From assembly GCA_963704725.1 (NCBI GenBank), contig OY969934.1:1312001-1376000 (forward strand): DNA of 64,000 bases, in the 5' to 3' direction. The notes beneath the pieces are model-generated. The model was not told where the DNA came from. It was given only the letters and a program-made list of their open reading frames with translations, and did not search any database. The stretch's first letter is position 1, and each line of letters opens with the position of its first letter. The stretch comes from an uncultured Actinomycetes bacterium (lineage in GTDB: Bacteria; Actinomycetota; UBA4738; HRBIN12). The position numbers and the translations under genes are program-made. This document shows positions 29,998 to 33,903 of the stretch, piece after piece.

Positions 29998-30615
29998 TCA
30001 CTCGGTGCCGAAGAGCCGGTCCCCGAAGTCGCCGAGGCCGGGCAGGATGTACCCGTGATCGTTCAGCTGACGATCCACGGCGGCCGTGTAGATCGGCACG
30101 TCGGGGTGATCGGCCTGCATCTTCTCGATCCCCTCGGGGGCGGAGACCACGCAGACGAACCGGATCGAGGCCGGCTCGCCGAGCTTCACGGCGGCGGTCG
30201 CGGCCGAGCCGGACCCGCCGGTCGCCAGCATCGGGTCGAGCACGAGCACGTGACGGCCCTTCACCGGGGGCAGCTTCCGGTAGTAGGACTGTGGCTGGAG
30301 CGAGGCCTCGTCGCGCTCGAGCCCGATGTACCCGACGGCCACCTCGGGAAGGAGCTCGGTCACGGCCTCGAGCATCCCGAGCCCTGCCCGCAGGATCGGG
30401 ACGGCCACGAGGTCTCCCAGCACCCGGCCGGTCGCCGGCTCGAGCGGCGTCGCCACGCCGATCTCCGAGGTCGGCAGGTCCCGGATGGCCTCGGCCGCGA
30501 GCACGAGGGCGAGGCGCTTGGCGAGGGTTCGGAACACCGGCGGTGGGGTTCGGGCGTCCCGGAGCTGGGTCAGCAGATGCGCCGCCAGCGCGTGGTCGAC
30601 GAGCGTGACCGACAT
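29998..30615 (-). CDS. upp: Uracil phosphoribosyltransferase
   Basis: VPILRAGLGM, LDPMLATGGS, YILPGLGDFGDRLFGT; TAGGAT 7 nt before ATG 30615. Confidence 0.96.
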   Translation of the reverse strand: MSVTLVDHALAAHLLTQLRDARTPPPVFRTLAKRLALVLAAEAIRDLPTSEIGVATPLEPATGRVLGDLVAVPILRAGLGMLEAVTELLPEVAVGYIGLERDEASLQPQSYYRKLPPVKGRHVLVLDPMLATGGSGSAATAAVKLGEPASIRFVCVVSAPEGIEKMQADHPDVPIYTAAVDRQLNDHGYILPGLGDFGDRLFGTE

Positions 30616-30662
30616 CGGGCGCATCCTAATGCGGCGCCGGGCGCCCCGCGTCCGGCCGGGGG

Positions 30663-30691
30663 TTGCCATGCGGAGCGCGTGCTGGCACGAT
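30663..30691 (+). promoter_or_regulatory. Sigma70-type promoter of the leader-peptide/aroF transcript
   Basis: TTGCCA (30663-30668) - 17 nt - CACGAT (30686-30691) with extended TGn. Confidence 0.65.
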
Positions 30692-30700
30692 GGCGCTTCG

Positions 30701-30754
30701 ATGCACGCGTACTTCGGCTTCGGGTCCTTCTACTTCGGGCGCCGCCCGGGGTAG
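30701..30754 (+). CDS. Phe/Tyr-rich attenuator leader peptide MHAYFGFGSFYFGRRPG
   Basis: 17 codons with 4 Phe and 2 Tyr directly upstream of DAHP synthase; 3' end complementary to the terminator 5' arm. Confidence 0.8.
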   Translation: MHAYFGFGSFYFGRRPG

Positions 30755-30778
30755 TCGCCTGAGGCGACCGATCAGACG

Positions 30779-30804
30779 ACCCCGGGCGAGGAGCCCGGGG
30801 TTTT
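30779..30804 (+). terminator. Attenuator terminator hairpin
   Basis: CCCCGGGC-gagga-GCCCGGGG followed by TTTT, 38 nt before the aroF ATG. Confidence 0.82.
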
Positions 30805-30842
30805 CCGTCTCCGGGGCGCGGGCCGGGAACGGAGGGATCCCC

Positions 30843-31874
30843 ATGGTCGTGGTGATGAAGCGGGAGGCCACCGAGGCCGACGTCGAGGCGATCGCCGAGC
30901 GCGTTCGGGCCTCCGGGGGCGAGGCGTTCGTGTCGCGCGGGACGGTGCACACGGTCATCGGGCTGGTCGGCGACACCGAAGCGTTCGAGGCGGTCGACTG
31001 GCAGCTCATGCCGGGCGTCGAACGGGTGATCCCGATCGGCAAGCCCTACAAGATGGTCGCGGCCGACCTGCACCCCCAGCCGACCACCGTGAACGTCGGG
31101 ACCACGCCGGTCGGGCGGAGCACCTTCACCATCATCGCCGGGCCCTGCGCCGTCGAGAGCGAGGAGCAGGCCCTGATCGCGACGAAGGCCGCGAAGGCCG
31201 CCGGCGCGACGATCCTTCGAGGCGACGTCTACAAGCCGAGGACGTCGCCCTATTCGTTCCAGGGGATGGGGGAGCGAGGGATCGAGATCCTGCGGGAGTG
31301 CCGGCGGCAGACGGGCCTGCCGATCGTCGTCGAGGTCGTCGACGCCTCGCACGTGGAGCAGGTGGCCGAGGTCGCGGACTGCATCCGCGTCGGGACGCGC
31401 AACGCCCAGAACTTCGAGCTGCTGAAGGAGGTCGGCCTCGTCCGCAAGCCGGTGATGCTGAAGCGCGGGCTCGCCATGACGATCGACGAGTGGCTGCAGG
31501 CGGCCGAGTACGTGGCCCAGCGGGGGAACTCCGACATCATCCTGTGCGAGCGGGGCATCCGGACGTTCGAGCCGTCGACGCGCAACACGCTGGACCTCGC
31601 GGGGATGGCCGTGGCGCAGGCCGAGTCCCACCTACCGGTGATCGTCGATCCCTCTCACGCGGTCGGGAAGCGACACCTCGTCGCGCCGATGGCGCGAGCC
31701 GCCGTGGCCGCCGGGGCCGACGCCGTGATGATCGACGTGCATCCCGACCCCGAGACCGCCTACTGCGACGGCCCCCAGGCGCTCACGCCCGACCAGATGC
31801 TCGATCTCGGCCGGGACCTCGAACGGCTGGCGGCGGCGATCGGCCGCACGCTCAACCGGCCCGACTCGAAGTAG
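30843..31874 (+). CDS. aroF: DAHP synthase type I-beta with N-terminal ferredoxin-like regulatory domain
   Basis: IAGPCAVES, KPRTSPYSFQG, GTRNAQNF, LCERGIRTFE, VDPSH, CDGPQ; GGAGG RBS. Confidence 0.95.
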   Translation: MVVVMKREATEADVEAIAERVRASGGEAFVSRGTVHTVIGLVGDTEAFEAVDWQLMPGVERVIPIGKPYKMVAADLHPQPTTVNVGTTPVGRSTFTIIAGPCAVESEEQALIATKAAKAAGATILRGDVYKPRTSPYSFQGMGERGIEILRECRRQTGLPIVVEVVDASHVEQVAEVADCIRVGTRNAQNFELLKEVGLVRKPVMLKRGLAMTIDEWLQAAEYVAQRGNSDIILCERGIRTFEPSTRNTLDLAGMAVAQAESHLPVIVDPSHAVGKRHLVAPMARAAVAAGADAVMIDVHPDPETAYCDGPQALTPDQMLDLGRDLERLAAAIGRTLNRPDSK

Positions 31875-31877
31875 AGC

Positions 31878-32651
31878 TCAGCCGACGAGCGGCGTCAGCT
31901 CGGCGATGTCGCACGTCCCGCGCCAACGCTTGAGGGAGTCCTCCGGCGGCCCGACGCGGCTCCGGCGGCGATCGACGAGGGCCTTGGCCGCGTCCTCCCA
32001 CTCCGGACCTTGCAGCAGGCGCACCGCGGCATGGTGCTCGTCGAGCGAGGTGTCCCGTCCCTTGCGGCGGGTGATCACCACCAGGTCGTTGGCGTTCGGC
32101 AGGCCCGGGATCGATTGCTCCTCGGGCCCCGGCTCGCGCTGCGAGAGCACGAGGACCTTGCCGTTCTTGTAGGCGAACCAAGCCGGCACGGTCCGGCGGA
32201 CCCCGTTCACGTCCACGCCCACCCAGATGACGTCCGACTTCCGGAAGCCATCCTCGACCTCCTTGGGCAGCTTCGTCGGCGGGGTCTGCACGTACACCGG
32301 GACCTCGATCTCGCCGACGATCTCGCCGTCGATCACGAACGACGCCAGGTACGCGCCGGTCTCGTCGAACGTCGCCTCCTCGACGCGATCGAGCTCGGTC
32401 GTGAGGTCCATGCTCCCGAGCATCCGGCGCACCACCGGACCCCAGCGGTGCACGAGCCGGCCCGAGGGTCCGTAGAACAGGACCTCCTCGGTCACCATGC
32501 CGGTGCCGATCTTCCAGGCCCGGTAGATCGTGAACGGGAGCGCCCGGCCCGGCGCGCCGAGCAGGTAGATGCCGGCGGGCCCGCGTTGTCCCTGGTCCGC
32601 CAAGACGCGGTCATCCACCACGTTCGCGAAGACGAGCTCGCCGACCGTCAT
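31878..32651 (-). CDS. Hypothetical two-domain protein; C-terminal part resembles a split-barrel (PNPOx-like) domain
   Basis: ORF with good GC-codon pattern; KSDVIWV..PAWFAY..GPEEQSIPGL; TATCCT 9 nt before ATG. Confidence 0.6.
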   Translation of the reverse strand: MTVGELVFANVVDDRVLADQGQRGPAGIYLLGAPGRALPFTIYRAWKIGTGMVTEEVLFYGPSGRLVHRWGPVVRRMLGSMDLTTELDRVEEATFDETGAYLASFVIDGEIVGEIEVPVYVQTPPTKLPKEVEDGFRKSDVIWVGVDVNGVRRTVPAWFAYKNGKVLVLSQREPGPEEQSIPGLPNANDLVVITRRKGRDTSLDEHHAAVRLLQGPEWEDAAKALVDRRRSRVGPPEDSLKRWRGTCDIAELTPLVG

Positions 32652-32706
32652 CGGAGCGGAAGGATAGCGAACGCCCCGAGCCGGAGCAGCGGCCGGGGTG
32701 GGCGGA

Positions 32707-33903
32707 TCACACGGTGCGCGCGAGCCACAGGCGCGGCTCGTCGAGCTCGGGCAGGGAGGGGAGGGCCTCCGGGCCCGACCACATCCGCGCCAGTGTCGCC
32801 TCGTCCGCGAGCTCGACGACGCGCTCGCAGAACGCCTTGCCCAGCCGGTACTGCTCGCGCTTGACCTCGATGCCGAGGAGGCGCTCCAGGACGGGGTCGA
32901 CGTGCTCCGTCTCGCGGTAGCGGCGCATGGCCTCATCGATCTTCGTGTACGAGGCGAGCATCCTGGCTCCGAGGGCGTGCATCACGTGGTCGCCATAGCC
33001 CTCCGCGGCACTCATGAAGGCCTGGATCCGTCCGAGCTTCAGTCGCTGCTCGTCGTCCAGGACCGCGCCGAACAGCCCCTCGTCCGACCCCAGCATCTCC
33101 TGCATCGCCTCGGGGTTGGAGGGATCGAGCGTCTCGAGACGCCGACGGAGTGACTCGACGTCGAGCTGCAGCGTCGACGTGTAGTCCTCGAGCAGATCCC
33201 GGAACCGGGCGAGCGCCCACGGCCGGGCGAACTCGAGCCGGTGTGTGACCTCGTGGATCGCGATCCACGTCCGGAACTCCTTCGGATCGAGGCTCCAGTC
33301 CCGCTCGAAGGCCGCGATGTTCGGAACGACGAAGAGCAGGGCGCCCGCGCCGCCCGGCCGCGGCATCGGGATGTCGTACTGCCCCAGCACCTGCTGGGCG
33401 AGCGCGCCGAGCACCGTCCCGACCTGAGCCCCGAGCAACAGCGGCGAGAGCTGCGCGAGGAGCTGGGTCATGCCCGGCGCCTGGGCGGCCTCGGGCACCG
33501 CGTCGCCCTGGGCCCGGCCCACCGCCTCGGCGATCTTGGCCGCGGCCGGCTCCAGGACCGCCCGTAGCCCCTCGAGGTTCTGCTGCACCCACTGCGCCCT
33601 TCGCACGGCCTCGACCTTCGGCAGGTCTCCGGGAGGCTCGAGCCCGGTGAACCCGGCCACCTGGATCTCGGCCAGTCGGACGGACTCCTCGAACCCGCGC
33701 TGGTCCTCGGCGCTCGGCGCCGGGTCGCCCGCGCCCCACGACGACGAGGCGATGCCGACCTGCCTGGCCAGCTCCCAGTTCACGGGCCCGCTCGAGGACA
33801 GCAGCACCCGCTGGATCTCGCGGAACAGCGGCACGTCGTTCCAGATGTCGCCGAGCGGCACGCCGAACGGATTCTCCTCGGGTCGCTGGGGCGTCTCGCT
33901 CAT
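32707..33903 (-). CDS. Zincin-like metallopeptidase (DUF2342/Zincin_2)
   Basis: GPVNWELAR, LGQYD, HEVTH zinc motif, EGYGDHV, QYRLGKAF. Confidence 0.9.
   Translation of the reverse strand: MSETPQRPEENPFGVPLGDIWNDVPLFREIQRVLLSSSGPVNWELARQVGIASSSWGAGDPAPSAEDQRGFEESVRLAEIQVAGFTGLEPPGDLPKVEAVRRAQWVQQNLEGLRAVLEPAAAKIAEAVGRAQGDAVPEAAQAPGMTQLLAQLSPLLLGAQVGTVLGALAQQVLGQYDIPMPRPGGAGALLFVVPNIAAFERDWSLDPKEFRTWIAIHEVTHRLEFARPWALARFRDLLEDYTSTLQLDVESLRRRLETLDPSNPEAMQEMLGSDEGLFGAVLDDEQRLKLGRIQAFMSAAEGYGDHVMHALGARMLASYTKIDEAMRRYRETEHVDPVLERLLGIEVKREQYRLGKAFCERVVELADEATLARMWSGPEALPSLPELDEPRLWLARTV

Follow-up and report, generated by a model that had tools for sequence, protein, structure and literature searches.

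The gene for 3-deoxy-d-arabino-heptulosonate 7-phosphate (DAHP) synthase in a 64,000-nucleotide stretch of DNA from an uncultured Actinomycetes bacterium (contig OY969934.1; the whole stretch is called the window below) is preceded by a short leader. On the strength of its sequence and of folding models, this leader is very probably a classical four-segment, ribosome-mediated transcription attenuator controlling the monocistronic DAHP synthase gene. We document here its anatomy, its conservation, the covariation of its helices and their thermodynamics. The kind of device is already known, even on an actinobacterial DAHP synthase, and the mechanism is not a new one. What is new is the sequence family, its link to a type I-beta enzyme with a ferredoxin-like domain, its distribution, which takes in an uncultured class and several others, and the usual co-occurrence of all three aromatic amino acids in one leader.

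Anatomy of the leader

The elements of the leader and the gene that follows it are listed by window position (nt, nucleotides; ORF, open reading frame; SD, Shine-Dalgarno sequence).

30663–30668, + strand: −35-like hexamer TTGCCA, read directly from the sequence
30686–30691, + strand: −10-like hexamer CACGAT (cAnnAT), 17 nt past the −35 hexamer and 9 nt ahead of the leader ATG
30701–30754, + strand: leader ORF MHAYFGFGSFYFGRRPG, 17 codons, from ATG 30701 to the stop codon TAG, read directly
30733–30740, + strand: segment 1, CUUCGGGC, which pairs with 30744–30751 to form the 1:2 (anti-antiterminator) hairpin
30743–30752, + strand: segment 2, CGCCCGGGGU, the final codons of the ORF and the U of its stop codon; pairs with segment 1 or 3
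30755–30769, + strand: small spacer hairpin GUCGCC-UGA-GGCGAC (GTCGCC 30755–30760, GGCGAC 30764–30769), read directly
30779–30788, + strand: segment 3, ACCCCGGGCG, the 5′ arm of the terminator and the first base of its loop
30780–30804, + strand: predicted terminator hairpin, CCCCGGGC (30780–30787), loop gagga, GCCCGGGG (30793–30800) and TTTT (30801–30804)
30793–30804, + strand: segment 4, GCCCGGGG, plus the U-tract UUUU
30831–30836, + strand: SD GGAGGG of the DAHP synthase gene, 6 nt ahead of its ATG
30843–31874, + strand: DAHP synthase gene, ATG 30843–30845, identified by profile searches

The promoter, the ORF, the terminator, the 10-nt complement and the small hairpin had all been placed correctly by an initial annotation of this DNA, which also recognized the leader ORF as the tail of a shadow ORF (142 residues, 30326–30754). 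It let the element run to 30845, which is the G of the DAHP synthase ATG. Its list of attenuator parts stands, but it missed the 1:2 helix (30733–30740 with 30744–30751), and it is the presence of this helix that makes the leader a full four-segment attenuator and indicates which codons matter. The leader contains the three competing helices of a classical attenuator, 1:2, 2:3 (antiterminator) and 3:4 (terminator). They accompany an ORF of pathway codons; positions 30743–30752 are the exact reverse complement of 30779–30788, and the antiterminator shares the 5′ arm of the predicted terminator, an 8-bp all-GC stem (−20.0 kcal/mol) followed by UUUU.

Codons 4, 5, 7, 10, 11 and 12 of the leader ORF specify Phe or Tyr, which amounts to six of the nine codons from 4 to 12 (YFGFGSFYF). 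The genome has a G+C content of 71.3%, and stop-free nine-codon windows with at least six Phe/Tyr codons turn up at only four places among the 6.9 million windows of its six frames; the binomial expectation is 0.011. No SD motif is found in the 9 nt between the −10 hexamer and the leader ATG.

The enzyme encoded downstream belongs to the type I-beta DAHP synthases and carries a ferredoxin-like regulatory domain at its N-terminus (PF00793, E 4.7e-75; PF18152, E 4.3e-20; NF006421, 456 bits against a cut-off of 335), in agreement with its earlier description as a Thermotoga maritima-type I-beta enzyme. The parallel that had been drawn with the Phe/Tyr allostery of such enzymes would be an analogy whose sole basis is the presence of PF18152.

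Conservation among relatives

Of 41 genomes sampled from the same order (the window genome counted), 40 have an orthologue of the enzyme, and the best 30 loci, from 30 genomes, were examined. Two of the 30 aligned leaders come from genomes flagged as unpublished (G011 and G029); no conclusion depends on flagged genomes. An aromatic ORF starting with ATG is present in all 30 loci, ∼135–195 nt upstream of the DAHP synthase start, with a length of 17 codons in 28 of them, 18 in one and 20 in one. These leaders are rich in Phe, Tyr and often Trp, and end in G-x-x-P-(A/G)-stop, followed by CCCCGGG...CCCGGGGUU. The promoter hexamers are kept (the −35 as TTGCCA or TTGxCx, the −10 as cAnnAT), as is a GGAGG-like SD block before the enzyme ATG; the stretch from terminator to SD differs in length and sequence. 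The small spacer hairpin is perfect only in the species of the window, most relatives having GCCGAC at this place. The alignment of relatives, which had been proposed as a check on the element, gave both an aromatic ORF retained in all 30 loci and compensatory changes in the 1:2 and 2:3 helices (see below).

Peptide statistics were drawn from 115 distinct leaders, 94 of them 17-mers with the consensus M-(Q/R)-x-(F/Y)-F-G-(F/Y)-W-F-F-Y-x-G-x-x-P-A. Among these 94, an aromatic residue stands at position 7 in 56, at position 8 in 66, at position 9 in 89, at position 10 in 52 and at position 11 in 86. Every one of the 115 leaders contains Phe, 112 contain Tyr and 87 Trp, and 85 combine the three. 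The description as a dual Phe/Tyr leader therefore holds for the copy in the window and not for the family, which is mostly Trp/Phe/Tyr. A Trp codon is absent from the window copy and from several species of its genus, where it is reported as lost. Within this genus (g1; loci L001–L012 and L018) some species keep the codon (e.g. MQASFGFGWFYGGPGPA) and others, including that of the window, have lost it; judging from these sequences, the range of sensed amino acids seems to drift between close relatives.

The start region is equally uniform. A −35/−10 pair with a spacer of 17–19 nt is found in 113 of the 115 leaders (17 nt in 74, 18 in 38 and 19 in one), and in 113 the −10 hexamer lies 7–11 nt from the ATG, a distance that is 9 nt in 65 of the 113. 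An SD-like motif precedes the leader ATG in just 18 of 115.

Covariation of the competing helices

In the terminator (3:4), 97.3% of 224 cells pair across 28 distinct sequences. The antiterminator (2:3) pairs in 86.3% of 306 cells, and in three of its pairs both partners have changed, all three reaching from the terminator arm into the terminator loop. Its covariation score is 0.106, compared with 0.045 in shuffles (0 of 500 as high) and ≤ 0.018 in slid controls. The base of segment 3 that follows CCCCGGG covaries with both of its partners, in segments 2 and 4, in a set of 109 distinct leaders: the segment 2/3/4 triple is G/C/G 47 times and A/U/A 11 times, and in the 18 leaders in which the segment 3 base is U, the segment 2 partner pairs in 18 and the segment 4 partner in 17. 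Of the successive layers of loop-reaching pairs in the 109 leaders, the first two beat all 2000 shuffles and the third does not.

The 1:2 helix (30733–30740 with 30744–30751) pairs in 87.5% of cells, against ≤ 51% in slid controls. Within it, the first base of codon 12 is paired to codon 17 (second base) in 93 of 105 distinct ORFs (G-C 77, U-G 15, C-G 1, with 12 U-C mismatches), compared with 69.6 ± 3.2 in shuffles (0 of 2000 as high), and the closing pair between codon 14 (first base) and codon 15 (second base) forms in 76 of 105, compared with 63.4 ± 2.5 (0 of 2000), with a switch from C-G to U-A. Peptides with Phe12 tend to end in Gly and those with Gly or Asp at position 12 in Ala, a coupling of residues 12 and 17 that arises from the 1:2 RNA pairing. 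The constraint on the C-terminus of the leader is best read as acting on the RNA, not on the peptide. The leader provides a case in which RNA pairing imposes an apparent 'protein' conservation (Gly13, Pro16 and the coupling of residues 12 and 17).

Proposed mechanism and predicted folds

The four-segment attenuator is a textbook model, and the parts described above suggest how it would operate here. We infer from the sequence where transcription would start, that the ORF would be translated, that transcription would end at the hairpin and that aromatic amino acids would set the outcome. Transcription would begin at the leader AUG or a few bases earlier, and a ribosome would translate the 17-codon leader. 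With tRNA-Phe and tRNA-Tyr well charged, the ribosome would arrive at the UAG and mask segment 2 (30743–30752); segment 3 would then pair with segment 4, and RNA polymerase would terminate at the U-tract (30801–30804). If Phe or Tyr were scarce, the ribosome would stall at codon 7, 10 or 11 and mask segment 1 (30733–30740), leaving segment 2 to pair with segment 3 once this is made; the terminator would be blocked and the DAHP synthase gene transcribed. In the absence of a ribosome, the predicted fold combines the 1:2 hairpin with the terminator, and the default state would therefore be 'off'.

The nascent RNA of the window was folded up to 30792, before segment 4 exists, with a ribosome placed at given codons. 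The helices have predicted energies of −12.2 (1:2), −21.4 (2:3), −20.0 (3:4) and −32.2 kcal/mol (1:2 plus 3:4), and the ribosome positions give the following folds (MFE, minimum free energy).

Codon 4 or 5 in the A-site: 1:2 hairpin for the most part
Codon 7, 10 or 11 in the A-site: complete antiterminator of 10 bp
Codon 12 in the A-site: antiterminator incomplete or absent
Stop codon in the A-site: no more than −4.2 kcal/mol of structure, segment 3 available to segment 4
Ribosome absent: 1:2 hairpin, with 1:2 plus terminator as the MFE structure of the full-length leader

The small spacer hairpin forms within the loop of the antiterminator. Both conformers called for by the initial annotation were thus obtained, the antiterminator with the ribosome stalled at codon 7, 10 or 11 and a nearly free terminator arm with the ribosome at the stop. 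In these models the codons that matter are 7–11, which is also where aromatic residues are most conserved across the family. Conservation, covariation and folding together support the switch between terminator and antiterminator, by way of Phe/Tyr codons and a translating ribosome, that had been proposed for this leader. The MFE structure of the single sequence also pairs 30722–30731, at long range, with the SD ahead of DAHP synthase; this pairing was dropped as it is not conserved in the alignment.

Evidence against the attenuator and alternative explanations

Several observations weigh against this model. Scans of 30300–31200 for promoter and terminator consensus returned, by their own criteria, no promoter-like and no terminator-like site; the −10 hexamer CACGAT is unlike TATAAT, and the U-tract is short, with only four U in the window and UUCUUCGU in many relatives. 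Transcription usually starts 6–7 nt after the −10 hexamer, and under this rule of thumb the 9-nt gap to the AUG would give a 5′ untranslated region (UTR) of ∼2–3 nt. A near-leaderless start is plausible because the promoter spacing is conserved, and for the window leader a 5′ UTR of 2–3 nt appears as likely as none. Public reads yielded 20 rows with part of the stretch, none with half of its words and one of them RNA. The RNA run leads to a single 265-nt metatranscriptome contig of a relative (< 90% alike, covering 30733–30960), which runs from the end of the leader across the terminator into the start of the gene; it cannot reveal where transcripts end and could be DNA.

The folds and the alignment also have their weaknesses. 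Folding of the whole leader gives a z-score of −1.93, with equally good folds in 7 of 200 shuffles. When 30 leaders are folded with a stalled ribosome, at least five of the eight segment 3 bases pair with segment 2 at all stall sites but the last in 23 of them. Without a ribosome, 14 of the 30 go to the antiterminator rather than to 1:2; the 1:2 helix is among the classical parts found in the leader, though only 16 of the 30 folds avoid the antiterminator. With the ribosome at the stop, segment 3 has two or fewer paired bases in just three leaders, the residual pairs in the other 27 being few and weak. The terminator stem is almost invariant in the 30-locus set, so that covariation cannot test it there. 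RNAalifold found no covarying pairs in the 30 leaders and recovered only the terminator, and the inner pair of the antiterminator (columns 59–101) is formed in only 9 of 28 sequences. Since the relatives are not independent, the shuffle controls overstate significance; the slid controls and the three-way triple change are the more robust evidence.

The short, imperfect U-tract and the silence of the consensus scan at the terminator are what could be expected if the ORF sensed aromatic tRNA charging and its output were not intrinsic termination but an action through Rho, through the stability or processing of the RNA, or on translation at the start of DAHP synthase. We consider this improbable. 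In the pattern matches listed (see below) the hairpin always stands directly before UU(U/C), the SD of the DAHP synthase gene lies ∼30 nt past the hairpin and in no conserved helix, and the three-way covariation of segments 2, 3 and 4 is the prediction of a terminator/antiterminator switch. Still less probable, and in our view very unlikely, is a functional small aromatic peptide with its own terminator, the DAHP synthase gene having a separate promoter. Such a peptide would fit the retention of Gly13, Pro16 and Ala/Gly17 and of the length (94 of 115 are 17-mers), but RNA pairing accounts for the C-terminal residues: the nucleotides of codons 12 and 17 covary, and the GGG and CCG codons form the 1:2 stem. 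Moreover, just 30–70 nt without conserved promoter hexamers separate the terminator from the DAHP synthase start, and among the matches listed the arrangement is tied to DAHP synthase in 102 of 104 ORF-bearing loci.

GC-rich genomes are rich in spurious ORFs and GC hairpins, and the leader ORF lies inside the 142-residue shadow ORF, so a chance ORF next to an ordinary hairpin in a divergent intergenic region had to be weighed as well. Its probability is close to nil: conservation has already refuted it, the ORF being kept in > 130 loci with aromatic identity retained while other positions vary, and the binomial expectation of such a codon run is 0.011 per genome. The attenuator remains the reading that we strongly favour for the leader in the window.

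Distribution of the leader family

The pattern of invariant bases was scanned over a named collection with one genome per species and matched at least 117 loci, with ∼180 estimated. Among the 117 matches listed (named genomes), 104 carry the aromatic ORF, and in 102 of these 104 DAHP synthase begins 30–70 nt past the terminator, the other two loci being incomplete; the remaining 13 of 117 are unrelated chance hits in other phyla or genera. The carriers among the matches listed are nearly all titled uncultured Actinomycetota or Actinomycetes metagenome-assembled genomes (MAGs). Three contigs labelled Alphaproteobacteria, Planctomycetaceae or 'uncultured bacterium' MAGs (L051, L056 and L052) carry the actinobacterial leader and enzyme, which suggests mis-binned contigs or loose labels.

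Within the order of the window, which is the sole order of its class in the genome set scanned (the same 294 genomes), the exact pattern is present in 151 of 294 genomes; a reversed control pattern gave one hit. The order tallies take in seven genomes flagged as unpublished (G011, G029, G069, G111, G113, G197 and G250). The figure of 151 is an undercount, because genus g38 scored 0 of 27 with the exact pattern, yet all five of its sampled genomes carry a variant leader with a slightly different terminator tail.

Outside the class, 71 genomes of the phylum were sampled. A Trp/Phe/Tyr-rich ORF of 19–32 codons was found in 12 of 13 loci with an enzyme at least 57% identical, in five further actinobacterial families. 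These leaders have a TTGAC(A/G)-N17–18-TAnnnT promoter 7–10 nt before the ORF and a CCCCGGG...CCCGGGG-U-tract hairpin after it. At 14 loci with more distant DAHP synthases (≤ 55% identity), no convincing aromatic short ORF was seen upstream. An aromatic ORF upstream at L172 was set aside as it looks like chance; by its frame it appears to lie inside the 3′ end of an upstream gene. Two loci of a low-GC family (f33; L164 and L167) have SD-preceded short ORFs ∼170–280 nt upstream of DAHP synthase; these share a motif and have Tyr/Trp clusters at their ends (...RCWLYYRGF and ...RCYLYYYYCA), and no clear terminator was seen. Judging by their sequences, they may represent a further type of aromatic leader, from a different class.

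A broader proposition would be that the family is old and phylum-wide, and that its members are SD-less multivalent Trp/Phe/Tyr attenuators through which transcription of the ferredoxin-domain type I-beta DAHP synthase is mainly controlled in several Actinomycetota classes. We give this proposition an even chance. The family is absent from Rfam 15 and from the searchable literature. A cmscan of 30300–31100 against Rfam (E up to 10) returned seven weak matches, all far under the gathering scores and none of them a leader or T-box, and the window leader falls outside the Rfam leader and T-box families (Phe_leader, Trp_leader, T-box and others).

The leader family is a clean, covariation-backed candidate for an Rfam entry and for annotation, as the 17-codon ORF is currently missed. 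For a large uncultured class of soil Actinomycetota, and for several classes besides, it offers a clear and testable scheme of control at the entry to the shikimate pathway, in which expression of the first enzyme would be read from the speed of the ribosome at Phe, Tyr and mostly also Trp codons, atop a probable allostery of the ferredoxin-like domain.

Comparison with known attenuators

The initial annotation was wrong in taking such an attenuator to be undescribed in actinobacteria. In Corynebacterium glutamicum, the aroR leader peptide (Phe-Tyr-Phe) lies upstream of the DAHP synthase gene aroF; it was first detected by RNA-seq (PMC4046766, Mentz et al., 2013). As summarized in a review, Phe limitation raises aroF transcription through stalling of the ribosome, and Tyr availability makes no difference (Neshat et al., 2014, J Biotechnol 190:55, per PMC11802643). 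In both systems an actinobacterial DAHP synthase gene is preceded by a short leader with Phe-Tyr-Phe, which in the window occupies codons 10–12; in C. glutamicum, Tyr and Phe also inhibit the regulated enzyme itself. The aroR transcript is reportedly leaderless. Unlike aroR-aroF, the window leader comes from an uncultured class and precedes a type I-beta enzyme with a ferredoxin-like domain, and most members of its family add Trp. The likeness would be a functional analogy, the two systems being set side by side by published description and not by sequence.

Our literature search for leader peptides of DAHP synthase genes gave aroR-aroF of C. glutamicum as the one described case. Multivalent leaders as such are textbook knowledge (ilv operons). 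The E. coli leaders trpL, pheL-pheA and pheST are leader-peptide attenuators, according to the review cited above (PMC11802643). The window leader shares their 1:2, 2:3, 3:4 logic, with regulatory codons just upstream of segments 1–2 and a stop beside segment 2. It differs from them in having no SD and in lying 9 nt from the −10 hexamer, and its gene encodes the common entry enzyme and not a terminal branch. In Streptomyces lividans, RNA-seq has revealed leaderless leader peptides (ilvL, leuL, metL and others) with terminators (PMC8079986), and attenuators of trp, ilvB and leuS have been predicted in Actinobacteria (Seliverstov et al., 2005, PMC1262725). The window leader would resemble these leaders, which lack a 5′ UTR and are followed by a hairpin and a U stretch. 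A term search of the S. lividans paper (PMC8079986) gave no mention of aroF, aroG, aroH or phenylalanine, the 2005 survey reports no conserved RNA structure upstream of Phe or Tyr genes (PMC1262725), and aro genes are not mentioned in the other attenuation surveys consulted for comparison. Since aroR-aroF is described and leaderless leader peptides are documented in Streptomyces, the claim of novelty made for the device itself fails.

A trpE leader and other loci in the same genome

A strict scan of the whole genome, for short ORFs whose 3′ end can pair with the 5′ arm of a perfect GC hairpin that lies downstream and ends in a U tail, found two loci only: the DAHP synthase leader and a 14-codon Trp-Ser-Trp ORF upstream of trpE, the gene of anthranilate synthase component I (PF00425 and PF04715). 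The trpE leader lies outside the window (ORF G000:C1:2292410-2292454, region G000:C1:2292410-2292580, L148:161-330). It consists of TTGACG-N17-GACCAT, 9 nt, the ATG, MTERAHRWSWRRGV (Trp-Ser-Trp), a CCCCGGGCGAGTCCCGGGGTT terminator, an SD and trpE. Promoter spacing is equal in the two leaders and the terminators are alike in style, that of trpE being CCCCGGG...CCCGGGGTT; in contrast to the window leader, the trpE leader has 14 codons, reads Trp-Ser-Trp and would control anthranilate synthase. Because the trpE leader shares this build, the organism appears to use the design for at least two genes of aromatic pathways.

Two adjacent DAHP synthase-like genes, 47% and 32% identical to the attenuated one, lie outside the window at G000:C1:2833174-2835044; such an adjacent pair is also found in the relatives G002, G009, G010, G011 and G016.

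Neighbouring genes and a minor observation

The genes that flank the leader and the DAHP synthase gene are the following.

29998–30624, − strand: upp (uracil phosphoribosyltransferase; PF14681, E 5.1e-68), divergent from the leader
31878–32936, − strand: ORF of 352 residues, converging on the DAHP synthase gene

With upp diverging upstream and the 352-residue ORF converging downstream, the DAHP synthase gene stands alone. The 352-residue ORF (31878–32936) gave no Pfam or NCBIfam match in profile searches. The start of upp is probably the ATG at 30615 or 30624 rather than that at 30669, because the profile match begins at residue 19–24 of the longest ORF; in-frame ATGs are seen at the candidate starts. 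Elsewhere in the genome (G000:C1:3079575-3080470, not in the window), long T or A tracts make up six runs that would translate as poly-Phe in some frame; they lie on alternating strands within ∼900 bases and could be a repeat element or an assembly artefact.

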